From a bacterium (lineage in GTDB: Bacteria > UBA10199 > 2-02-FULL-44-16 > JAAZCA01): a DNA stretch of 64,000 nucleotides. The stretch is taken from the NCBI GenBank assembly GCA_963674695.2, contig CAXXGI010000003.1, forward strand, positions 800,001 through 864,000, read 5' to 3'. The position numbers and the translations under genes were made by a program. Within the stretch, counting starts at the first letter, position 1. The number at the start of each line of letters is the position of its first letter. This document shows positions 2,570 to 31,926 of this stretch, piece by piece. A model generated the notes under the pieces. That model was not told the DNA's origin and searched no databases. It saw only the letters and a list, made by a program, of their open reading frames with translations.

Positions 2570-4666
2570 TCAGGTGGAGGTGAGGGATGGAGCCATGAAT
2601 ACCGTCGGCATGAGCGCATCATCAGCCATACCCACGCTCACCTCCATGGCATCGAGATCGGCGGCATCCCCCTCATATTCATCCGAACCGGCGGTCGCAA
2701 ACAGGATGCGCGCTCCGTCCCCCGGGTCATGCAACACCAAGGGGGCATCGAGCGAAGGCTGTCCCGTCCATACGCTTGGGCTCACAGGTGAAGATGGTGC
2801 ATTGCCGTTTCGGCGCCGCCTCATCGCCATCGCCTCCGAGTCCGCGATGCGCTCGAGCATCTCCAAACGCTCATCAAAAATGCGCATCCGCGCGACAATC
2901 GCACCGAGACCCCCTGCACCCCGCTCGCGTGCCGCGTTTATCTCACGCGCGACCTCCCGATGCATCGCATCGGCGGCGGCGTTTTGAATCGTTTGGGGAA
3001 GCTTCTCATAGCGCCCTGACTGTCGTGCGAAGTCATGGATGAATTGACCGAAACGACGGAACCATTCCGTTCGCGGCGGGAGAAAGCGATTGATCTCATC
3101 GAACACCTCGGCGCTCAACCTCCGCGCCAACACGGTGCGAACCGCTTTCAGATTGTAATACACCTGGGGCACGTCCGCCCCCGGCAGGACAACACGAAAT
3201 CGCAGACGTGACTGGCCTTCCAGGGAGGATTGCAAGAACTCGTCGAGTTCCTGGAGACGGTCGCGATCGAAGCCCGCATCGATGGCCTCGGCGACCGAAA
3301 TGAATCGCTGAACATCCTCTGCGGCATTCGCACGGATATAATCCATATCGCCCAGGGTCACCTCGCGCAACATGCGCCCCACAACCGCCAGTCGCCATGT
3401 GAGGTCTTCGACCTCGAAGGAACCGTTGTGTTCGCGAATATGTGCAATATTTTTGCTCACGATGTGCGTCGCATCGATCTCTGAAAAGAGAGGGAGATAG
3501 CATCGATGCCCCGCGACGACCTCCATCATGCCATCCAATATCTCATCGAGATGGTCGCGCAGGATGTATTTGAAATAGCGCCGCTTGCGACCCGCCTTCG
3601 TTCGCACCCCGTCATCGCGGATCCACTGGGCGAGAAAGAGATAGTCATCCGCCTCGACCGCAAGCGCATCATGCCGACGCGGCGGCGGCAAGAGAGCGGG
3701 AACGTCCGGCACGAAAGGCTCACCCTGCTCGCCCCTTTCGAGGAACGAGTCATGAATGACGCGCCCGTTGTAATCGCCATGCACATTGAGATGAATCTTC
3801 AAGCCGACGCGCATACGCTCGGCAACATAGATCGTATGCTCAACCCACCCCGGATATATCTTGTCTCCATAGAGGGCAAATTCCACGCCGCGCAGGTCGA
3901 GGTCCTTGGCCACCGCCAGGAGCTTGAGCACCTGGGCCTCATGAAGGAAACATTCCCTCTCCGACTGGATGCTCGGTATCGGACCAAAAACCGCACCAGA
4001 CCGCTGCATCTTGACCTCTACGAGTCGATCGCCGCTGACGACAGCATCTATCTCGGTCACGCTGGTCAGGAATTCGTACATCTGGGTTACCATAGAGTTG
4101 AACTGTTGGCGAAGCTCTCTGCGCAGGTCTGACGGAATCAGGTGCCACGGAACATCGACGCCCTGGCGCGCCAGCACCCGATTGCCCAGGGGAGCTTCCC
4201 GCTCCGCCAGGTCGGCGGTATGGCGCATCTCCTGGAGCGTCCCGGCAATAACCGATTCCTTTAGAGAGAGCAGGCCGAAGTGACCAAGGAACTTAGCGAC
4301 CCCCTCCACGTCGGCGTCGATGAGACGTCCAAAGAGATCCAGCGCAAACCCCAACCAGTCCGTTTGCGTGATCCAGGGCAAGCCCAACATACCCTGTAAC
4401 GCAGCATTCTCGACGAGTGCCTTTGCATTCCCCTTATTGAATGAGGCAAGGCGCGCGAGCGTCTCCCGCTGAGAAAACTCAAGAGGGGCAATGCGCCGAT
4501 CGCCGCTCAGGCCCAGCTCGCGCATCCAAGCCGAAACGACCTGTTCACGCTCGGGTGTGGGGTGAAGATCAGAACCGTCACCCACATCCGAAGATGGCTG
4601 AGCCCCTCCCGACACAGACATCCTCCCGGCTGCCCCTCCGCTCTCATCTGTGCGATCGATGCTCAT
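2570..4666 (-). CDS. Large orphan protein (698 aa) with a candidate PD-(D/E)xK nuclease motif and an acidic low-complexity C-terminal tail
   Basis: Long ORF between recognisable genes; EIDAVVSGDRLVEVK...Q..K motif; disordered termini. Confidence 0.75.
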   Translation of the reverse strand: MSIDRTDESGGAAGRMSVSGGAQPSSDVGDGSDLHPTPEREQVVSAWMRELGLSGDRRIAPLEFSQRETLARLASFNKGNAKALVENAALQGMLGLPWITQTDWLGFALDLFGRLIDADVEGVAKFLGHFGLLSLKESVIAGTLQEMRHTADLAEREAPLGNRVLARQGVDVPWHLIPSDLRRELRQQFNSMVTQMYEFLTSVTEIDAVVSGDRLVEVKMQRSGAVFGPIPSIQSERECFLHEAQVLKLLAVAKDLDLRGVEFALYGDKIYPGWVEHTIYVAERMRVGLKIHLNVHGDYNGRVIHDSFLERGEQGEPFVPDVPALLPPPRRHDALAVEADDYLFLAQWIRDDGVRTKAGRKRRYFKYILRDHLDEILDGMMEVVAGHRCYLPLFSEIDATHIVSKNIAHIREHNGSFEVEDLTWRLAVVGRMLREVTLGDMDYIRANAAEDVQRFISVAEAIDAGFDRDRLQELDEFLQSSLEGQSRLRFRVVLPGADVPQVYYNLKAVRTVLARRLSAEVFDEINRFLPPRTEWFRRFGQFIHDFARQSGRYEKLPQTIQNAAADAMHREVAREINAARERGAGGLGAIVARMRIFDERLEMLERIADSEAMAMRRRRNGNAPSSPVSPSVWTGQPSLDAPLVLHDPGDGARILFATAGSDEYEGDAADLDAMEVSVGMADDALMPTVFMAPSLTST

Positions 4667-4674
4667 ACCACCCC

Positions 4675-4702
4675 TTATCGTCGAACACCCTCAAAGGTTG
4701 CG
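4675..4702 (-). promoter_or_regulatory. sigma28 (FliA/WhiG)-like promoter
   Basis: Minus strand CGCAACCTTT-N10-GACGATAA, 8 nt before the ATG at 4666; identical spacing to two other copies in this window. Confidence 0.6.
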
Positions 4703-4790
4703 TCATTTGTAAAAAACCCTTTTCGCCATATCAACACGTCCATGACGTGACCACACTGTTCTCTTTTGAAAACGGTTTTTTCCAAATCAA

Positions 4791-4818
4791 CGCAACTTTT
4801 ACGGTGAGCATGCGATAT
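4791..4818 (+). promoter_or_regulatory. sigma28 (FliA/WhiG)-like promoter
   Basis: CGCAACTTTT-N10-TGCGATAT upstream of the ATG at 4847. Confidence 0.55.
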
Positions 4819-4846
4819 ACACATGCAACCAAACGCGAGGAGTCCC

Positions 4847-6109
4847 ATGTTTAAACTCAATATCATCGGCAACCCTCCCCCCACACAAGTGCCCACCGGT
4901 CTCCCTTTGGGACTCGAAAACATCGAAGCGAGCGACTCCGATGGCGCATTCGATAACACAGATTACATCGATATCGCAGCAGGAGGGGCAAGCTCATTTG
5001 AGTTTCAGGCCGAAACACAATCGCCACAGGCTATCATCGCGTCTCAAGTGCTCAAGAGCATCCGCAATGGCAGCGAAGCCCATGAAGCCCTTGCACTGAT
5101 GCCGAAATCAGGAGCAACGCCCGACGAAAACGTTACCGCCACGATAGAACGATTCATCCGTGATACCGAAGTGGAGGACGCAAAGACCCACGCGCGCGCA
5201 GAAGAGATTATCGAGTGGATGAAAGCGTTTTCCCAATCGATCGATCCCATCGCCGTTGGCTACAAGGGGACAACGTGGTGGAGCCGGTTCATTGGACGAA
5301 AGATCGATCCCGGCGACGTCCTTCGCGAAATCCTCCGGACCATCGACATCGAGGGACAAAACGGTGACGACGCCAAGACGTTCATCAGGCGATACACCGA
5401 CAGCCTCATCGCCAGAAGGGAAACCCTCCGGGAGCTCAAAGGGTCAATTGAAGAACGCGCCTTTCAGAACGCTGCCGTCACAGAACTTTTGAGTCGCATC
5501 AATAGGGGAATACGTGAGATGCAAGATGACCCTCTCAATGCCGACGATAATCGCCGACTCCAAGATGCACATGAGGAGGTCATCGCATGCCAGCTCGATC
5601 ACGGTGAATCGGCCACTCGCATCACGCAAAGCGCTTCCCGTACACAGCAGCTAATGCGCAAAATCAGCCAAGTCATCGACTCCAATAATCGAACCATAGC
5701 GACATTCGAGGCGATCATGCCCATCTTCCAGCAGTTGGTCGCACGCCTTCATAACCTCAACGAGAATGACAAACTGCTCCCGGCAACGAGTGCATTCCTG
5801 ACCATCGCTGTTCGTTCGAAGGGGAACCTGAAGGAGGAAGAAGCACTTCGGAGCATGTCGCCCGCCCACCCAATCATACACTACATTCAAAATCTCATCG
5901 GTGCAGCACAGCGTCTACAAGACGCCACCAACATCTTCGCCCAGTCCCATGAAGCGATGTCCAGGGCCTCACAAGAGAACCTCCCGAAACTCTCTCGCAT
6001 GATGACGATGCCGCACAAAACAAGCATACGCCTTGCCGACACGCACCCCACGAATGCAATCGGCACATCGAATCGAGCCACGCTTCCTGCGCCGAAGAAG
6101 AGAACGTAA
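4847..6109 (+). CDS. Coiled-coil protein resembling the TelA/KlaB toxic-anion-resistance family, with an acidic N-terminal leader
   Basis: RBS GAGGAG then ATG at 4847; IDP...KGTTWWSRFIGRK and QLMRKISQVIDSNNRTIATFEAIMPIFQQ recall TelA segments (LDP...GFLGKLFGK; QIRLIQNNN....IPLWK). Confidence 0.6.
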   Translation: MFKLNIIGNPPPTQVPTGLPLGLENIEASDSDGAFDNTDYIDIAAGGASSFEFQAETQSPQAIIASQVLKSIRNGSEAHEALALMPKSGATPDENVTATIERFIRDTEVEDAKTHARAEEIIEWMKAFSQSIDPIAVGYKGTTWWSRFIGRKIDPGDVLREILRTIDIEGQNGDDAKTFIRRYTDSLIARRETLRELKGSIEERAFQNAAVTELLSRINRGIREMQDDPLNADDNRRLQDAHEEVIACQLDHGESATRITQSASRTQQLMRKISQVIDSNNRTIATFEAIMPIFQQLVARLHNLNENDKLLPATSAFLTIAVRSKGNLKEEEALRSMSPAHPIIHYIQNLIGAAQRLQDATNIFAQSHEAMSRASQENLPKLSRMMTMPHKTSIRLADTHPTNAIGTSNRATLPAPKKRT

Positions 6110-6147
6110 ACGCACCAGATGAGGGGAGAATAACAAAGAGGAGACCC

Positions 6148-9100
6148 ATGTCATCGGTCATTCACCACATGACATCGCTGCCATTTGCATTGGCACCGGA
6201 CGCATCCGAGACGGATGTTGCCTTCGCGTATGCGGATGAAGCGATGGAGACAGAGGACTTCGACGCAAGCGCCTTTGTCGCGGAAGGTTCCGATGAAACC
6301 GGCATGGCGGCCTCGTCCTGGGGGTCCGAGTGGCATACGGCCACGCTTCTCAAAGAGAGTCCCGCATGGGTGAAAACGATCCCCCTCTCACGCAGAGACA
6401 TGACACCCGATGAGGGGGGACACCGGACAACAGCCGCATTCGCGCCGCCGCCGCCGAACACCGCGGTAAGACGAGCAAGCGAACAGGACGACAGAACCCT
6501 TCGGATGGTAATCAGAAATCTGATGGACGACTTCAATGTGCATACATCATCATCGATTGATATCAGGGGAAGAATCATTCACGCCCTCCCCTGGACTGAC
6601 GTTCGACCATTCTACATGGCCCTTCTTGTGCGAATCGCACAAGACCGTTACGATGGTTCGGCAGCTCAGTTCAAACAAGTCCTGCAATATGCCGGCTCTC
6701 ATTGGAAGCAGGAACGCCGCACCATCCTCGGTGCAGATACATTCGATTACAACGACGGTCACCCCCTCCCCTCCTCCGTCTTAGCAGATACAGACATCCA
6801 CCTCAACGTCAGGGATACGACCCAGCCATTCCTCGACGCCATCCTCCCACGTATTACGGACGATGATGCCATCGAACGGAAGCAAGCCATCACTGCCCTC
6901 ACGCTCATACTGGAATCTGCAGATGCGCACGGGGATAAATGCTGGCAAAGAACCATCATCAGCAGCATACGCGATTTCCGCCACAGCCAGGGTTTCCCCG
7001 CATCGCTCTTGGCGGATATTGCCATCCATGTGAGCCACCGTGATGCCATCGCACTCTTCACCGACATCATTTCCCCGCGCATGCATAGCAATGACCGCGC
7101 GTTACGAGAGGAAGCCTGCGCTGCCTTCACACGCGTGAAGAGACACGCCGACAAACACTGGCACCGGAATGACATCAAGCGCCTTGAGGGCGGCAACTCC
7201 ATTTCCAACAAACAGATCATTTCACCATCAGGAGATGCCACCTCCTCAAACGTCTCTATCAACATCGCCACCGTATTGAACGAGGCGGCCCCCATTGTAG
7301 AGGGAATGCTAAAAGAGAGCATGAGCATCACATCGGAGATCCACACATCCTTCACAAACGGCACTTCCGCCCACACCACACATATCACTCTCCATCCTCG
7401 ACACCCATCCCAAAAAGTGGATGCGCGGATTTCCGGGCCCGTCCGCACCCTCACAGATGCATCGCAGACCTCACGCCTCAACAACATCATTCCGCGCATC
7501 AACTGCGGCAATGCCAAGATTCAGCGTATAGCACGAGATGAGTTCCTAGGCGTATTGCAAGAGATGCATACGGAGGACAATCGAACGCACTCATGCGCCG
7601 CACTCACCCGTCTCCTCAATGAATCAAGCGATCTCCCCCGCGATTTTCTCATCCAGATCGCTGCGCTCGCACCAGAGGGAACGTTTGACAGCATCCTCTT
7701 TGGTTTCCTGAAGAAGAACATCGCTGCGCAATGGGACAAGAACGCACCCAGCCCCTTCCCCGACCAGATACCGGAAGGGAAGACGATCACCGCGATGATC
7801 GATATCGCCTTCGAACCGATCGAGGTGTATCGCTCATCGCTCAAGCAGCTCACCGATATTGTTTCGCGCGGACCGAAGGCAGCCGCAGAATTCGATTCAG
7901 TCCTCGATGAACACAACTTTTCACACCCACTCGACGGAATATATCTCGCAGAAAACCATACCCTCAAAAGGGCCTTCGCTGGATACCTCTCTCAAACAAG
8001 AGACACCTCATACGATGCATGGCACCCCCTTATGCAGATCAGCACGGAGGCTCGCCACAGCGTCCTCAAACCCCCTTTCCAACAAGCCCTGTCAACATTC
8101 GCCAAAAACAATACATCCCCTCACCTCATCCCCTTAAGTGTGCGACTCGCCCTTGAGCTCACCCCACGCACGCCGCATCTGACTCAATTGGCACATCACC
8201 TCTCTCACCAGCAGTGGGATGAGCTGGCCGGGCTTCTCCGGAACAGCATCCGTACGTTTGATGACACCGCACGCGATACCATCGCGGCCGAGTTTCTCCA
8301 TGCACACAATGATAGACACTTCAGCATGCCAAACCCATGCTATGCTGGCGCCCTCATCGCTGCGACACAAGCCGAGACACGCGCGAAGCTCTTGCGCATC
8401 CTCATCGAACGCCGGGCCTGGACAGAGATTCAGGAGCCCCTGAATCAGCTACGTGCAGCGGACACTCCGGATATTGACGACCTGAACGCGATCGTCCTGC
8501 AGGCCGCCAAGACGCAGACCGTTCCATTCGAACTCCTCGAGACCATTCCCGCTGCACACGAAGAATCCAAAAAGTGGCTCGACGCTGTCGGCTTTGGTCA
8601 GCAGGGCTCCGTCCACGAAGACCCCGTGCGATGGTATGAGATCAATACCGCGCAGGCCCTCATCGGATTCCTCGTCAAATGGACCTTCGCGCCCTCGATC
8701 GAATCGTCACCCCTGAGCCGTTTTCAGGCGCAGCGTGAGATGCGACGCGCCAAAACCACGCTCACAGAACTCGCGCTCGCCCATGCGCGCGGGGAAGGCC
8801 ACGGCGTCCTCACCATCCGCAATGTCGTGAATGCCCTGGCCAAATCGCTGGACCGTGATCCCGTCGGCGACCAGATCGAGGAGATCCTGGAGGGGGAGTC
8901 GAGCGAAGAGGCGCTTAAAACCCTGTTACGATCATCGCTGCCCACGCTCCTCATCGTCTGGCGCAAGCGCATGCAGGCGATGGCCTTCGACCCGCCGCTT
9001 CTTCACGAGGCTCCTCCTTCACCTCTGCGCCTCTTTACGGATGCGGCCAGCATTCGAAACAGAATGGACACGCTCGCAGCGGAGCAGGAAGAACCACTCG

Positions 9101-9393
9101 CACCGAACATCCTCTTTACAGAGGCCTGGATACGCATGCGCCATCCCGAGCGGACCGAGGGCTTCGAGGAGAGGGCAGCTCAACGCTTTACCACCGCACA
9201 TCAACTCCTCCAACGCCCCCTCGAACCGATCGGGGACGCGCAGAAAAACGCCGCCGCGCTCGCGATCATCGAGGGATTCAAGACCTTCCTCGATGCCGCA
9301 CAGGATGAGAAGGCCCTCGAAACCCTCGGCGATTTCCTCGGCCCAGAGGAAGCGGCACAGATATTGGCCGTCGCGAAGAAGTTTCAGCGATAG
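6148..9393 (+). CDS. Large alpha-helical orphan protein (1081 aa) with an acidic N-terminal leader and internal ~76-aa repeats
   Basis: Long ORF with GAGGAG RBS, 38 nt after the previous stop; no recognisable enzyme motif. Confidence 0.8.
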   Translation: MSSVIHHMTSLPFALAPDASETDVAFAYADEAMETEDFDASAFVAEGSDETGMAASSWGSEWHTATLLKESPAWVKTIPLSRRDMTPDEGGHRTTAAFAPPPPNTAVRRASEQDDRTLRMVIRNLMDDFNVHTSSSIDIRGRIIHALPWTDVRPFYMALLVRIAQDRYDGSAAQFKQVLQYAGSHWKQERRTILGADTFDYNDGHPLPSSVLADTDIHLNVRDTTQPFLDAILPRITDDDAIERKQAITALTLILESADAHGDKCWQRTIISSIRDFRHSQGFPASLLADIAIHVSHRDAIALFTDIISPRMHSNDRALREEACAAFTRVKRHADKHWHRNDIKRLEGGNSISNKQIISPSGDATSSNVSINIATVLNEAAPIVEGMLKESMSITSEIHTSFTNGTSAHTTHITLHPRHPSQKVDARISGPVRTLTDASQTSRLNNIIPRINCGNAKIQRIARDEFLGVLQEMHTEDNRTHSCAALTRLLNESSDLPRDFLIQIAALAPEGTFDSILFGFLKKNIAAQWDKNAPSPFPDQIPEGKTITAMIDIAFEPIEVYRSSLKQLTDIVSRGPKAAAEFDSVLDEHNFSHPLDGIYLAENHTLKRAFAGYLSQTRDTSYDAWHPLMQISTEARHSVLKPPFQQALSTFAKNNTSPHLIPLSVRLALELTPRTPHLTQLAHHLSHQQWDELAGLLRNSIRTFDDTARDTIAAEFLHAHNDRHFSMPNPCYAGALIAATQAETRAKLLRILIERRAWTEIQEPLNQLRAADTPDIDDLNAIVLQAAKTQTVPFELLETIPAAHEESKKWLDAVGFGQQGSVHEDPVRWYEINTAQALIGFLVKWTFAPSIESSPLSRFQAQREMRRAKTTLTELALAHARGEGHGVLTIRNVVNALAKSLDRDPVGDQIEEILEGESSEEALKTLLRSSLPTLLIVWRKRMQAMAFDPPLLHEAPPSPLRLFTDAASIRNRMDTLAAEQEEPLAPNILFTEAWIRMRHPERTEGFEERAAQRFTTAHQLLQRPLEPIGDAQKNAAALAIIEGFKTFLDAAQDEKALETLGDFLGPEEAAQILAVAKKFQR

Positions 9394-28682: not shown

Positions 28683-30353
28683 ATGAAGATCGTCGAATGC
28701 GTTCCCAATTTTAGCGAAGGATGCGACCCCGCCATCATCGAAGCGATCGCGGATGCCGTGCGCGTCATTTCCGGCGTGGAGTTGCTCGACGTCGATCCGG
28801 GGGCGGCGACCAACCGCACCGTCTTCACCTTCGCCGGCCAGCCCGAAGCGGTACTGGAAGCAGCCTTCCAGGCGATCAAGACGGGCTCCGCGCTCATCGA
28901 CATGCGTCACCATAAGGGAGAACACGCGCGCCAGGGGGCCTGCGATGTCTGCCCCTTCGTGCCCATCTCCGACATGACGATGAAAGAATGCGTGGAGCTG
29001 GCCAAGAAGCTCGGCGCGCGCGTCGGCGAAGAGCTGGGCATTCCGGTCTATCTCTATGCCGAGGCGGCACAGCGGCCGGAGCGCGTGCGGCTGCCCGACA
29101 TCCGCGTCGGCGAATACGAAGCCCTTGAGGAGAAGCTGAAAAAACCGGAGTTCAAGCCCGATTTCGGCCCGACCGCCTTCAACGCCAAGGCAGGCGCCAC
29201 CGCCATCGGCGCACGCAACTTCCTCATCGCCTACAACATCAATTTGAACTCGACGAGCGTGAAGGTCGCCAAGGAGATCGCCTTCACCATTCGCGAGACC
29301 GGACGCCTCAAGCGCGACGCGGAGGGCAATCCCATCGTGAAATCGGACGGCACGAAGGAACGCGAGCCGGGGATGTTCACCGGCGTGCAAGGAACCGGCT
29401 GGCTCATCCCCGAGTACAACTGCGCGCAGATCACCGTGAATATCCTCGATCTGGATGCCGCACCCGTCCACCGTGTCTTCGACGCCTGTTGCGAACTGGC
29501 CACAAAACTCGGCGCGCGCGTGACCGGCAGCGAGGTCGTCGGGATGCTCCCCAAGCGCGTCCTCGTGGAGGCCGGCCTCTACTTCCTCACGAAACAGAAC
29601 GCCTCGACGGGGGCATCGGAAGCGGAGATCATCCGCACCGGTATCCGCTCGCTGGGGCTCAGCGATGTCGCCCCCTTCGATCCGCAGCAGAAGATCATCG
29701 AGGAGCGGTTCAAAAAGGCGGCACCGCTGGCGAACATGACGCTCATCGGCTTCACGCATGAACTCGCATCGAACTCCCCTGCCCCCGGCGGCGGATCGGT
29801 GGCAGCCCTTGCCGGTGCCCTCTCCGGCGCCCTCTCCTCGATGGTCGCCGCACTCACCTTCGAGAAAAAGGGATTCGAGGAGCATCGCGAGGAGATGGAG
29901 CGCGTGGGCGTCGAAGCACATGCACTCGTGGCCCAACAGCTCGCCGCGATCGATGACGACACCGACGCCTTCAACGCCGTGATGGACTGCTTTTCGATGC
30001 CGAAGCAGACCGACGAGCAGAAGGCCGCACGCACAGCCGCCATCGAAGAGGCCAACAAGAAGGCCACGCTCGAACCGCTGGGCACGCTCGAACGTGCGCC
30101 GGCGATGCTGGATCTGGCCAAGGCCGTCGCCGAACGCGGCAACCCGAACTCCCTCTCCGATGCCGGGGTGGCCGGCCTCATGGCCCGAGCTGCCGCCTGG
30201 GGCGCCTATTATAATGTTCTCATCAACCTGCAGGGGATTGCGGATGCGGCGTGGACGAAGGAGACCCGAAACCGTGCTGAACAAGCCCTCGCACAGGTCA
30301 CCGAGAAGGCCGTCGCGGTGGAAGCGTCTCTCACCACCGCGTTGCAGGGCTGA
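28683..30353 (+). CDS. ftcd: Bifunctional glutamate formimidoyltransferase / formimidoyl-THF cyclodeaminase
   Basis: ECVPNFSEG, NRTV.T, H.GEH.R.GA.DVCPFVP, GAR.FLIAYN, PAPGGGSVAAL and GNPNSLSDAGV motifs. Confidence 0.95.
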   Translation: MKIVECVPNFSEGCDPAIIEAIADAVRVISGVELLDVDPGAATNRTVFTFAGQPEAVLEAAFQAIKTGSALIDMRHHKGEHARQGACDVCPFVPISDMTMKECVELAKKLGARVGEELGIPVYLYAEAAQRPERVRLPDIRVGEYEALEEKLKKPEFKPDFGPTAFNAKAGATAIGARNFLIAYNINLNSTSVKVAKEIAFTIRETGRLKRDAEGNPIVKSDGTKEREPGMFTGVQGTGWLIPEYNCAQITVNILDLDAAPVHRVFDACCELATKLGARVTGSEVVGMLPKRVLVEAGLYFLTKQNASTGASEAEIIRTGIRSLGLSDVAPFDPQQKIIEERFKKAAPLANMTLIGFTHELASNSPAPGGGSVAALAGALSGALSSMVAALTFEKKGFEEHREEMERVGVEAHALVAQQLAAIDDDTDAFNAVMDCFSMPKQTDEQKAARTAAIEEANKKATLEPLGTLERAPAMLDLAKAVAERGNPNSLSDAGVAGLMARAAAWGAYYNVLINLQGIADAAWTKETRNRAEQALAQVTEKAVAVEASLTTALQG

Positions 30354-30373: not shown

Positions 30374-30401
30374 CGCAACTTTTTTGGCCTGTCGCCGATA
30401 T
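30374..30401 (+). promoter_or_regulatory. sigma28 (FliA/WhiG)-like promoter
   Basis: CGCAACTTTT-N10-GCCGATAT, 10 nt before the ATG at 30412; the -10 element is 7/8 of GCCGATAA. Confidence 0.65.
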
Positions 30402-30411
30402 CTGCGGTACG

Positions 30412-31926
30412 ATGAATCGATCGATCGACAACGATACCAGCCTGGTCCTCAGCATCTTGAGCCTCGGCATCCGCTCGCAGGCCTTCCCTCCGCATCTGCG
30501 TCACCATATCGACGCCGCTCGAAATGAACTCGACCAGGGAAGACCACAGGGCGAACAATGCCGCGCCCTGCTCAAGATCTGGCAGGAATTCAAACGTCTT
30601 ACGTCAGGGAACGAACACCGCGATCCCGCGACATGCGCGCGCCAGGCATATGAGCGTTTCCGTCCGCCGCCCGCACCCGCCCTCATCGATGCGCACGTCC
30701 CGACCGCCGATACTTCGACGACCGAGTGGCTGCGCTGGGCGAAGGACGTCGCCTTCTCTCCGCTCTTTGTCGATGCACAGGCACAGCGCCTGTTCCATCG
30801 CGATCACGGCCAGCGTTCAAAGGAAGCCGAACGCGTCGCCTCCCAGCGCGTGCGACGCATCATCGGACAGCGCGTGACCACAGCCCTCATGGGACAGAAC
30901 ACGAGATCCGCCTCGACCCTCCCTCCCCCGAACAGTGACGCCTTTCTTCAATTGGCCGCCGAGCGTTTGGAGACGGATCCGCTGGCCCTGCTCATACGCG
31001 AAAAAACCGATCTCTGGAGGGTCGTCCTCGCACGGGTCTTCGCCCACGTGATTCGCACCACGCCATCTGCCGAGACCAACGATGGGGAAGAAGCACAGCG
31101 CATACATCTGAAAAACTGGTTTGACGCACTTGTGAAGATGCAATGGGACGCGAACGAAATCACCCGCATCGTGATGCATGAATGGAAAGACGAGAAGCGC
31201 GTACCGTTGGATGCGCTTGCACGACTTCGGCGTCTATCGCCGAGCGCGGTATCGCTCAGCCCGTTCAAGGGCCCACTCTCGGGACGCCTGCTCGCGCTCG
31301 AAATCCTGCGCGTGCATGGTTTCGATCATCACGCGTCAAAATCCGTTTTCCAGAAGAACCTCCCGCCGATCGTGCCGCAACGAACGCTCAAACAGCTCTT
31401 AGGCCATCTCAACCAAATTGAACGAAAGGAATCACCCTTCCGTTTCCGCGCGGCGAACGTCCTGTATTGGCACATGAAGCCGGACTGGGAGTTTATCACC
31501 TCGTTCGCACGGCAGGTGCAGCGCAGCAAGACCGCTCCCACGCTGAACGCATTTCTCGATCGCTTCTATGCCGTGACTCCCGACGATCTCATCGAACGCC
31601 TGCAGGCGTATCGAAAAAAGGGCATTCATATCGACGTTGCCGTCGATACCATCGCCGAGCGTTTTCCCGATGCCCGCCAAGCCCTGATGAAATCGGGACT
31701 CCTTGCAACCGCCGCCGCTCCGACCACAGCAGACCCCGAAGAGAACCCGGCGGAGATCGCCCAAACAACCGTCCTCCAACAAGCCGCCCCCGCCATCATG
31801 GACTGGGCCAACGACGCGGCGTCTTCCGGGGAAGATCTTCTTCTCGCCACCGACCTCGCACCGTCGGCGTGGATGGGATGCGCACAGCCTGCGTTTGCCC
31901 TCTCAAGCGCCCTCATCCTGCCGTAG
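30412..31926 (+). CDS. Orphan helical protein (504 aa) with an acidic Ala-rich C-terminal tail
   Basis: Long ORF filling the gap between ftcd and the tRNA; no motif recognised. Confidence 0.75.
   Translation: MNRSIDNDTSLVLSILSLGIRSQAFPPHLRHHIDAARNELDQGRPQGEQCRALLKIWQEFKRLTSGNEHRDPATCARQAYERFRPPPAPALIDAHVPTADTSTTEWLRWAKDVAFSPLFVDAQAQRLFHRDHGQRSKEAERVASQRVRRIIGQRVTTALMGQNTRSASTLPPPNSDAFLQLAAERLETDPLALLIREKTDLWRVVLARVFAHVIRTTPSAETNDGEEAQRIHLKNWFDALVKMQWDANEITRIVMHEWKDEKRVPLDALARLRRLSPSAVSLSPFKGPLSGRLLALEILRVHGFDHHASKSVFQKNLPPIVPQRTLKQLLGHLNQIERKESPFRFRAANVLYWHMKPDWEFITSFARQVQRSKTAPTLNAFLDRFYAVTPDDLIERLQAYRKKGIHIDVAVDTIAERFPDARQALMKSGLLATAAAPTTADPEENPAEIAQTTVLQQAAPAIMDWANDAASSGEDLLLATDLAPSAWMGCAQPAFALSSALILP

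Follow-up and report, generated by a model that had tools for sequence, protein, structure and literature searches.

A sigma-28-type promoter motif ahead of orphan genes in a flagellin-less bacterium, probably read by a divergent FliA/WhiG-like sigma factor

Results and Discussion

The promoter motif in the window and in the genome

The present analysis concerns a window of 64,000 nucleotides, i.e. the whole stretch of DNA analysed, which corresponds to positions 800001-864000 of contig C3 in assembly G000 (3.03 Mb, 58.6% GC, three contigs) of a bacterium from an uncultured, phylum-level lineage. Three copies of a bipartite motif are found in it, at 4675..4702, 4791..4818 and 30374..30401. With a probability of about 0.8, these sites are promoters of the sigma-28 (FliA/WhiG, group 3) type, read by a 289-aa sigma factor that is encoded at G000:C3:8530-9399. 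The sites behave as expected of promoters with respect to the enrichment of the motif, its fixed orientation, its fixed spacing and its conservation in the phylum, and we infer from sequence that the 289-aa sigma binds the motif DNA.

Promoter 1 (4675..4702, minus strand, reading leftwards) consists of the -35 block CGCAACCTTT (4702-4693), a 10-nt spacer and the -10 octamer GACGATAA (4682-4675). Promoter 2 (4791..4818, plus strand) shares a divergent spacer with promoter 1, the two standing back-to-back, and has the -35 block CGCAACTTTT (4791-4800) and, again after 10 nt, the octamer TGCGATAT (4811-4818). Promoter 3 (30374..30401, plus strand) combines CGCAACTTTT (30374-30383), a 10-nt spacer and GCCGATAT (30394-30401), and is located in a 58-nt gap behind the co-directional open reading frame (ORF) 28683-30353. 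The sequences and coordinates of the three sites had been given in a preliminary description of the window, and all of them are exact on re-reading. Each site is an exact match of the pattern GCAACYTTT-N10-NNCGATAW, which occurs three times in the window and in none of 100 dinucleotide-preserving shuffles. This pattern was taken from the three sites themselves, and therefore it was tested on the remaining genome.

The strict pattern occurs 29 times in the whole genome. A weight matrix of 46 columns, seeded with 62 looser matches and run through three iterations, converges on 162 sites of at least 16 bits, hence the regulon comprises about 160 promoters rather than the three originally described. 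Promoters 1, 2 and 3 score 33.6, 27.1 and 36.4 bits, respectively, and are the only sites of at least 10 bits in the window, where the next best reaches 9.7 bits. The scores are bimodal, with 14 sites at 12-16 bits and 144 at 25 bits or more. At the 16-bit threshold the reversed matrix yields one site and five third-order Markov random genomes yield 4, 4, 5, 6 and 10, while at 25 bits the 144 real sites compare with 0-1 in the controls. Both strands carry sites, and so do the three contigs, with 60, 47 and 55, respectively.

The genome consensus is AAAnnaCGCAACTTTT-N10-GCCGATAA. Its information content, of about 30 bits, is confined to the two blocks and an upstream A/T tract, spacer and flanks being unconserved. 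In matrix columns 26-33, the bases G, C, C, G, A, T, A and A occur in 93, 87, 159, 160, 162, 134, 150 and 103 of the 162 sites, respectively. The spacing is equally strict: when GCAACNTTT-Nk-CGATA is counted for k from 8 to 17, there are 52 occurrences at k=12, three at k=13, two at k=15 and none elsewhere.

Concerning the placement of the sites, gene positions were obtained with a home-made codon-usage gene caller, which yields 2119 genes covering 81.5% of the genome. In spite of this high coding fraction, 150 of the 162 sites are intergenic, 12 lie in coding sequence of the same strand and none is antisense. A motif no commoner upstream of genes than elsewhere had been named beforehand as an outcome that would speak against a promoter; the opposite was found. 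A downstream gene was called for 160 sites, and in 104 of these its start falls less than 100 nt past the -10, including six starts called as much as 60 nt upstream of it. For 24 sites the gene caller placed no gene within 400 nt, but 21 of them have an ORF of at least 60 aa starting within 100 nt.

The distance to the start codon is also structured. ATGs that open ORFs of at least 80 aa peak at 7-11 nt past the octamer (23 of the 162 sites), become rare between 12 and 18 nt (7 sites) and are found again from 19 nt onwards, a peak and trough that fit a fixed transcription start about 8 nt past the octamer. Such a start implies, for the predicted gene starts, two classes of messages: about one in seven sites would give leaderless or near-leaderless mRNAs, and the rest leaders with a Shine-Dalgarno sequence. 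The roughly 14% of sites that look leaderless include sites 1 and 3 of the window, whose ATGs lie 9 and 11 nt past the last base of the -10, respectively, in agreement with the short leaders claimed earlier for two of the three sites.

Promoter geometry and sigma factor residues

The promoter of Pseudomonas aeruginosa fliC, as placed in an open complex (PMC12784957), reads (-36)TCTAAAG(-30) and (-15)GCCGATAA(-8). Set in this register, the consensus of the present genome reads aCGCAAC and GCCGATAA, being identical at -35, -32 and -31 and over the whole octamer. The -10 is thus that of canonical FliA class-3 promoters, with its CGA core and at the same position from -15 to -8, and the -35 begins at the same distance, 14 nt upstream of the octamer, across a fixed spacer. 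The canonical TAAA(G) of the -35, on the other hand, is not found: CTAAAG is replaced by CGCAAC, and only C-35, A-32 and A-31 are common to both. The preliminary description had proposed sigma-28 spacing with a variant -35, and this is what the alignment yields, the -35 being altered in the same register.

The 289-aa sigma has FliA_WhiG as its best NCBIfam match (132.4 bits, 132.7 in a second scan). Its top matches, FliA_WhiG, WhiG and FliA, span residues 49-272 and cover regions 2-4, and there is no region 1.1. Among solved chains, the top ones are those of WhiG (6pfv, E 9e-26, and 6pfj), followed by FliA (9wsf, 9wsm and 6pmi), WhiG (7lq4) and FliA (1rp3).

The residues that contact the promoter were mapped by alignment to the FliA chain 9wsf_A, whose numbering runs five ahead of that in PMC12784957, and the mapping was checked on nine named residues. 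According to that work, Arg97 of FliA reads the guanines of the extended -10 (G-15/G-14), Asp87 touches position -13, Tyr76 stacks on the flipped A-11, and Ser224 and Gln228 make base-specific contacts to the -35 (PMC12784957). The -10 readers are kept in the 289-aa sigma, where R97 corresponds to R132, D87 to D122, R80 to R115, Y76 to F111, D66 to D101 and H100 to Y135, and they are invariant or nearly so in 16 orthologues; D93 (G128 here) and R101 (A136 here) are not retained. Concerning the -35 readers, S224 is kept as S254, whereas Q228 is replaced by R258. The region 4.2 helix reads LSKSWTSRLH instead of the canonical VSESRVSQLH of FliA, so the neighbours of Gln228 also change, from Glu, Arg and Val to Lys, Trp and Thr. 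This recognition helix is identical in 19 of 20 aligned sequences, and S254, W255 and R258 do not vary among the 16 orthologues compared. Hence the -10 half is conserved, in the protein through its -10 readers and in the DNA through the octamer, and the -35 half is altered in both, through R258 and CGCAAC. Region 4.2, singled out for inspection from the start, is changed at one of its two -35 readers, in keeping with the variant -35.

Which sigma factor reads the motif

The sigma factor inventory of the genome comprises RpoD, an RpoH-like sigma, three extracytoplasmic function (ECF) sigmas, a 910-aa sigma, the 289-aa FliA/WhiG-like sigma and RpoN. The genome thus has a group-3 sigma factor, the class whose absence would have told against the preliminary description, and its best family and structure matches are FliA/WhiG. 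Across the phylum, individual genomes have between 2 and 15 sigma-70-family genes. In three relatives, G023, G038 and G068 (97, 91 and 96% complete, respectively), Sigma70_r2 detects nothing beyond RpoD and the FliA-like orthologue at E<=0.1, yet GCAACNTTT-N12-CGATA matches 63, 28 and 28 times. By elimination the FliA-like sigma is the most likely reader of the motif, and the ECF, RpoH-like and 910-aa sigmas are excluded as its readers in these three relatives. The suggestion that a FliA/WhiG-family sigma drives the regulon is in this way supported.

The alternative that needed testing is an ECF (group 4) promoter served by one of the three ECF sigmas, with GCAAC and the T-run as -35 and CGAT as -10, since ECF promoters, for example those of B. 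subtilis SigW, have a similar -35 (AAC and a T-run) and a similar AAC-N16-CG spacing. The genome has the three genes needed, and one site (C1:32826, minus) precedes an SLT-domain gene, behind which comes an ECF sigma gene; between these two genes, however, a terminator-like hairpin with a T-run is seen by eye. ECF promoters are characterized by an AAC-type -35 and a short CGT-type -10. Here AAC is present, but the -10 is CGATA, with its A in 162 of 162 sites, and extends over eight bases, with CGA in 160-162 of 162 sites and the extended GC of the composite sigma-28 -10. A composite -10 of this kind needs domain 3, which is absent from ECF sigmas (PMC12784957), and this counts against an ECF reader. 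The sigma inventories point in the same direction: the three relatives above keep 28-63 copies of the motif with no ECF sigma detectable at E<=0.1, thirteen further genomes have only three Sigma70_r2 matches, and family f7, where sigma factors are most numerous (6-15), has the fewest motif copies. The comparison of inventories largely refutes the ECF alternative, which we hold to be very unlikely.

Another non-ECF alternative sigma, either the 910-aa or the RpoH-like one, is still less likely as the reader. The 910-aa sigma has regions 2, 3 and 4, scores 93 bits against FliA_WhiG, and its own gene has a copy of the motif 8 nt ahead of an in-frame ATG, an arrangement that might suggest autoregulation; its best families, however, are RpoD and RpoS. 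The RpoH-like sigma, of 306 aa, passes the sigma-32 subfamily cut-off (269 vs 241 bits), and the sigma-32 consensus is unrelated to the motif. Both sigmas are absent from the motif-rich G023, G038 and G068.

A housekeeping promoter of the lineage, read by RpoD alone (as in the non-canonical consensus of Bacteroidota) or by RpoD with an activator, would suit the number of sites, since 162 is many for an alternative sigma and amounts to about one tenth of the approximately 1620 estimated transcription-unit heads. It would also suit the geometry, as a -35, a spacer of 16-17 and a -10 are generic to the sigma-70 family. We nevertheless consider it scarcely credible. The only assembled 16S gene has TTGACA-N17-TAGAAC in its upstream region and no motif, and the ribosomal-protein/rpoA/fusA cluster of the window (minus strand, 42000-62200), an internal housekeeping control, contains no motif site, so the earlier remark that the motif was not seen ahead of housekeeping genes holds for both. 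Furthermore, RpoD looks canonical, scoring 737 bits against the RpoD equivalog and having TRERIRQIE in its region 4.2, the approximately 30 bits of the motif are typical of alternative sigma promoters, and the targets are orphans rather than housekeeping genes. Equally hard to credit is that the motif is no promoter at all, being instead a bipartite transcription factor site or part of a dispersed repeat: no RNA run contains the window sequence and the genome does have an abundant dispersed palindromic repeat (171 copies), but that repeat differs in sequence, conservation of the motif is limited to its two blocks and the upstream A/T tract, the sites are strictly oriented toward the downstream gene, the ATG distances peak and dip as a fixed start predicts, and the -10 block coincides base for base with that of sigma-28.

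Several points weigh against the reading of the motif by the 289-aa sigma, besides the ECF-like features of the -35. The score of this protein, 132.4 bits, is below the curated FliA_WhiG (TIGR02479) cut-off of 189.6 bits, and it should therefore be regarded as a divergent relative and not as a typical member. The elimination was made in three draft genomes, of which two belong to a single genus, and it presumes that Pfam misses no sigma factor in such assemblies. Since the whole phylum shares both motif and sigma, their co-occurrence cannot discriminate between readers. In family f7 (G024, G039, G042-G046) the sigma has 57-64% identity and the genomes show only 1-15 exact matches, and in the more distant G078, whose sigma has 40% identity and nearly the same recognition helix, there is one pattern match. 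On the side of the methods, the apparent invariance of some matrix columns stems in part from the seed pattern and from the weights of the matrix itself, and gene starts, leader lengths and N-terminal statistics rest on a crude gene caller. Finally, the runs that contain window positions 2570-9393 are three DNA contig runs from one study, with no RNA run among them.

Conservation in the phylum

Every one of the 73 genomes of the phylum with a completeness of 85% or more contains GCAACNTTT-N12-CGATA, in 1-90 copies, compared with 0-1 per genome for the same pattern read backwards. An orthologue of the 289-aa sigma, of 50-76% identity, is likewise found in 73 of 73. Family f7, with its 6-15 sigma-70-family genes, is where the motif is scarcest, which points to either a reduced regulon or a drift of the -35.

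An additional FliP that scores higher against Pfam (253-267 bits) was observed in G002, G033, G054, G055, G056, G061, G066, G067, G070 and G073. A second, weaker FliA-like paralogue is present in G002 and G070, and also in G036, G071 and G075, which have a single FliP. The relatives with two FliPs probably have a true flagellum beside the secretion cluster, in which case two sigma-28 paralogues, each with its promoters, could be compared in a natural setting.

The sigma gene locus

The gene of the 289-aa sigma lies inside a type III secretion cluster (G000:C3:5230-24918). The cluster begins with a small TPR protein, YscJ/FliF, the sigma factor and a 165-aa protein with a weak SctI signal, continues with a FliG-like protein, FliH, an EscN-type ATPase and YscO/FliJ, and ends with FliN, FliO, FliP, FliQ, FliR and two more TPR proteins. 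Export-apparatus and sorting-platform components, as expected of a non-flagellar type III secretion system, are accordingly found, namely YscJ/FliF, FliH/SctL, the EscN-type ATPase, YscO/FliJ, FliN, FliP, FliQ and FliR. Genes for FliG-like and FliO-like proteins are flagellar traits. The cluster is mixed in this respect, as it combines these two with the injectisome traits of a YscO-like and a weak YscI-like protein, an EscN-type ATPase and three small TPR proteins. The genome also carries three secretins.

In this genome, rated 100% complete, no match was found for Flagellin_N, for Flg_bb_rod (rod/hook) or for FlgM, and none of the 138 scanned targets described below is flagellar, so the regulon is non-flagellar as had been claimed. 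Neither control of late flagellar genes nor a FlgM was found for the 289-aa sigma.

The association of the sigma gene with the cluster is widespread. All 73 genomes of the phylum encode a FliP homologue, and the distance between the sigma gene and FliP is 7-10 kb, on one contig and strand, in 52 of them and 21 kb in one more; in the remaining 20 the two genes are on different contigs. The motif itself is not a feature of the apparatus genes, with no site in C3:1-45000 and two weak matches in about 190 kb of orthologous neighbourhoods. Instead, 19 of 20 loci have a sigma-54-type sequence, TGGCAY-N5-NTGCA, ahead of the sigma gene (C3:8475-8490 in G000; loci L085-L103). Beside the cluster lie genes for an FHA/YscD-like sigma-54 activator (C3:25067-26455) and a PEGA-domain Ser/Thr kinase (C3:26484-29246). 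The sigma-54-type promoter and the nearby FHA-domain activator and kinase make a cascade from sigma-54 to sigma-28 plausible.

The 165-aa ORF (C3:9399-9896) is located directly behind the sigma gene or overlaps its end. It is syntenic in 18 of 19 loci of relatives, where it starts between -22 and +28 nt from the end of the sigma gene, and it has a variable N-terminal half and a highly conserved C-terminal stretch of 65 residues. Pfam gives a weak T3SS_basalb_I (SctI inner rod) match in 2 of 16 orthologues (best E 0.0037), and a profile search of the PDB gave nothing usable. A role as FlgM-like anti-sigma was considered for this ORF and dropped, the SctI signal weakly favouring a rod-like secretion component.

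Between the YscJ/FliF and sigma genes lies an ORF (C3:7062-7472) whose product has the domain of 23S rRNA intervening-sequence proteins (PF05635).

Regulon content

The genes downstream of 138 of the 162 sites were scanned with Pfam at E<=1e-5, the 24 sites that have no called gene within 400 nt being left out. No Pfam family was found for 97 of the 138 targets (46 of 70 plus 51 of 68), compared with 39 of 138 controls, which were random other genes from the same loci and the window (odds ratio 6.0, Fisher p 3e-12). Since the controls include operon mates of targets, the contrast is conservative. The targets are also longer than other genes, with a median of 450 vs 318 aa and 12.4% vs 2.7% of products above 1000 aa. 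An N-terminal hydrophobic stretch is present in 16% of them vs 29% of others, and two or more membrane spans in 7% vs 16%, both pairs of figures being based on crude starts. The GC content of targets (0.593) and of other genes (0.597) does not suggest a recent horizontal transfer of the targets.

The annotated targets include cell wall proteins (SLT, LysM and AmiA-like), peptidases (S41, S8 and C25), glycogen enzymes (GH13, GH77 and starch synthase) and signalling proteins (GGDEF, PilZ and HATPase). They also comprise a set of eukaryote-like or extracellular-matrix-like proteins (serpin, SET, HEAT/Arm, VWA, FG-GAP, TSP3/OmpA and RHS), together with an SMC protein, a DEAD helicase and the 910-aa sigma. 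The latter (G000:C3:147960-150692) has regions 2-4 in its last ~230 residues, preceded by an extension of ~680 aa made of repeated modules. With the motif lying 8 nt before its in-frame ATG, this sigma is likely a second tier of the cascade. A frame of 797 aa with Sigma70_r2 is found in the relative G001.

The three promoters of the window are followed by orphan ORFs. The target of promoter 1 is an ORF of 698 aa (2570..4666, minus), whose ATG position makes its message a candidate leaderless mRNA. A Pfam scan of a 651-aa version of this ORF found no family, and an ESM Atlas search with its product gave no usable match (best score 0.80). Promoter 2 is followed by an ORF of 420 aa (4847..6109, plus), in a frame that is open from 4823. 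An in-frame ATG is also present 5 nt past the -10, which is too close; therefore the promoter most likely serves the ATG at 4847, which is preceded by GAGGAG. Pfam has no family for the 420-aa ORF, and its gene was matched at E<=1e-10 in none of 25 relatives. A 1081-aa ORF (6148..9393, plus), also an orphan, is the probable second gene of the promoter-2 operon, as suggested by its strand and the 39-nt gap; in the part scanned, 6616-9393, no Pfam family was found.

Promoter 3 has as its target an ORF of 504 aa (30412..31926, plus), a candidate for a near-leaderless message, with no Pfam family and no ESM Atlas match. Homologues of this gene are found in 2 of the 25 relatives, at 25-27% identity, and both of these distant homologues (in G010 and G001) keep an upstream motif, of 29.6 and 31.4 bits. 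The orphan character of the targets, put forward in the preliminary description, is thus seen both in the window and in the regulon as a whole.

Proposed mechanism

Taken together, a model can be proposed in which domains 2 and 3 of the sigma factor would read the composite -10 GCCGATAA (-15 to -8), as in canonical sigma-28, and the altered region 4.2 helix LSKSWTSRLH, with Arg in place of Gln228, would read the lineage-specific -35 CGCAAC in the register of CTAAAG. Transcription would start about 8 nt past the octamer, and expression of the regulon may be stage-specific, as the preliminary description supposed. The regulon predicted in this way comprises about 160 promoters, or one tenth of transcription-unit heads, and its products would be mostly lineage-specific orphans, often very large and mostly devoid of an N-terminal hydrophobic segment, accompanied by enzymes of peptidoglycan remodelling, glycogen metabolism, proteolysis and cyclic di-GMP (c-di-GMP) signalling and by the 910-aa sigma.

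A further and tentative possibility, which we consider rather doubtful, is that the motif marks the cargo of the type III secretion system of the phylum, the sigma-28 having come from a flagellar ancestor, remained within a flagellin-less, injectisome-like cluster in which FliG-like and FliO-like genes persist, and been retuned at the helix that reads the -35. The completed or activated secretion machine would then be coupled, via the sigma-54 step, to the ~160 promoters, and the FHA-domain activator and the Ser/Thr kinase beside the cluster could feed that step. Fast-evolving, often giant targets that mostly have no Sec signal would correspond to secreted effectors or to proteins of a contact stage, and the eukaryote-like character of some of them (SET, serpin, HEAT/Arm, VWA, FG-GAP and TSP3) would fit a predatory or host-associated life style. 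If this were true, a promoter scan would list the effector repertoire of every genome of the uncultured phylum, as the hrp box does in Pseudomonas syringae, and the motif would serve as an effector-finding tool.

Comparison with known systems

Canonical FliA drives flagellar genes, while here the sigma-28-type motif stands at ~160 promoters of non-flagellar, mostly orphan genes. The nearest precedent appears to be the FliA regulon of Bdellovibrio bacteriovorus, where TTAAG-N16-CCGATA was reported at 92 of 140 attack-phase promoters and a role as global regulator was proposed for FliA (PMC3627812). The targets named there are surface proteins, proteases, uncharacterised proteins, another sigma factor and regulators (PMC3627812), hence both regulons comprise on the order of a hundred promoters or more and largely non-flagellar genes. 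Differences are that Bdellovibrio is flagellated, with FliA still acting on flagellar genes and a canonical -35 (PMC3627812), whereas here there is no flagellin and the -35 is changed. Besides, the Bdellovibrio regulon was derived from attack-phase promoters (PMC3627812), while the present one is read from sequence alone and has its sigma gene in a secretion cluster.

WhiG of Streptomyces (6pfv, 6pfj and 7lq4) is the best-scoring solved relative. Its region 4.2 helix, GVTESRVSQIH, differs from LSKSWTSRLH, and the genomic context here is a secretion cluster. WhiG is a sigma-28-family factor that controls differentiation and not flagella, and it is linked to c-di-GMP (PMC12871210); the GGDEF and PilZ targets found here recall this link.

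The sigma factors encoded with type III secretion clusters offer another comparison. These include HrpL, with its hrp box, in Pseudomonas syringae and Erwinia, and BtrS, with the secreted anti-sigma BtrA, in Bordetella. Hrp-type promoters mark dispersed genes of secreted effectors, and in Bordetella the secretion activity feeds back on the sigma. HrpL and BtrS are ECF (group 4) sigmas, however, and the present one is a group-3 relative of FliA/WhiG; moreover, unlike in those systems, the secretion apparatus genes here are not behind the motif.

A sigma-28 is also kept by Chlamydia, a non-flagellated bacterium with type III secretion, in which it serves developmental late genes from a promoter close to the canonical consensus. 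The chlamydial regulon is described in 10.1101/322701 as "several late genes", compared with the ~160 promoters found here.

Among the open-access papers found in searches on non-flagellar sigma-28 regulons and promoters, no title or abstract describes a -35 of the CGCAAC type. What appears to be new is, then, a sigma-28-family regulon with a seemingly co-evolved pair of -35 and region 4.2, in a non-flagellated uncultured phylum and tied to a secretion cluster.

If correct, this would be the first readable regulatory code for an uncultured phylum-level lineage, in each genome of which a single 28-nt motif predicts about one tenth of the transcription units and singles out genes that cannot be annotated. 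It would also represent a natural experiment in sigma specificity, where the -10 half has been frozen and the -35 has changed together with one residue (Gln to Arg), the pair being fixed phylum-wide. A flagellar-type sigma within a flagellin-less secretion cluster, itself under a sigma-54-type promoter, bears as well on the origin of injectisome-like systems from flagella.

Additional observations

An NTG triplet, mostly GTG, starts at offset 6 past the -10 in 35 of the 162 sites, often as aGTGaaGG. It may reflect the sequence surroundings of the initiating nucleotide, or else be an element akin to a discriminator.

Two motif sites at contig ends were considered as possible rRNA promoters and rejected, as both precede paralogous TSP3/OmpA-like genes. 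These TSP3-repeat/OmpA-like paralogues, both behind the motif, are found at G000:C1:1-1774 (minus) and C3:1091504-1091657 (plus), and their 5' regions, compared unaligned, are similar. The assembly may break within this gene family.

A final point of notice is the dispersed palindromic repeat, ATTCCCGCnTTCGCGGGAAT, present in 171 copies with at most two errors, which looks like an intergenic element of the REP type. Examples are found at G000:C3:8289 and upstream of the genes of the RpoH-like and 910-aa sigmas.

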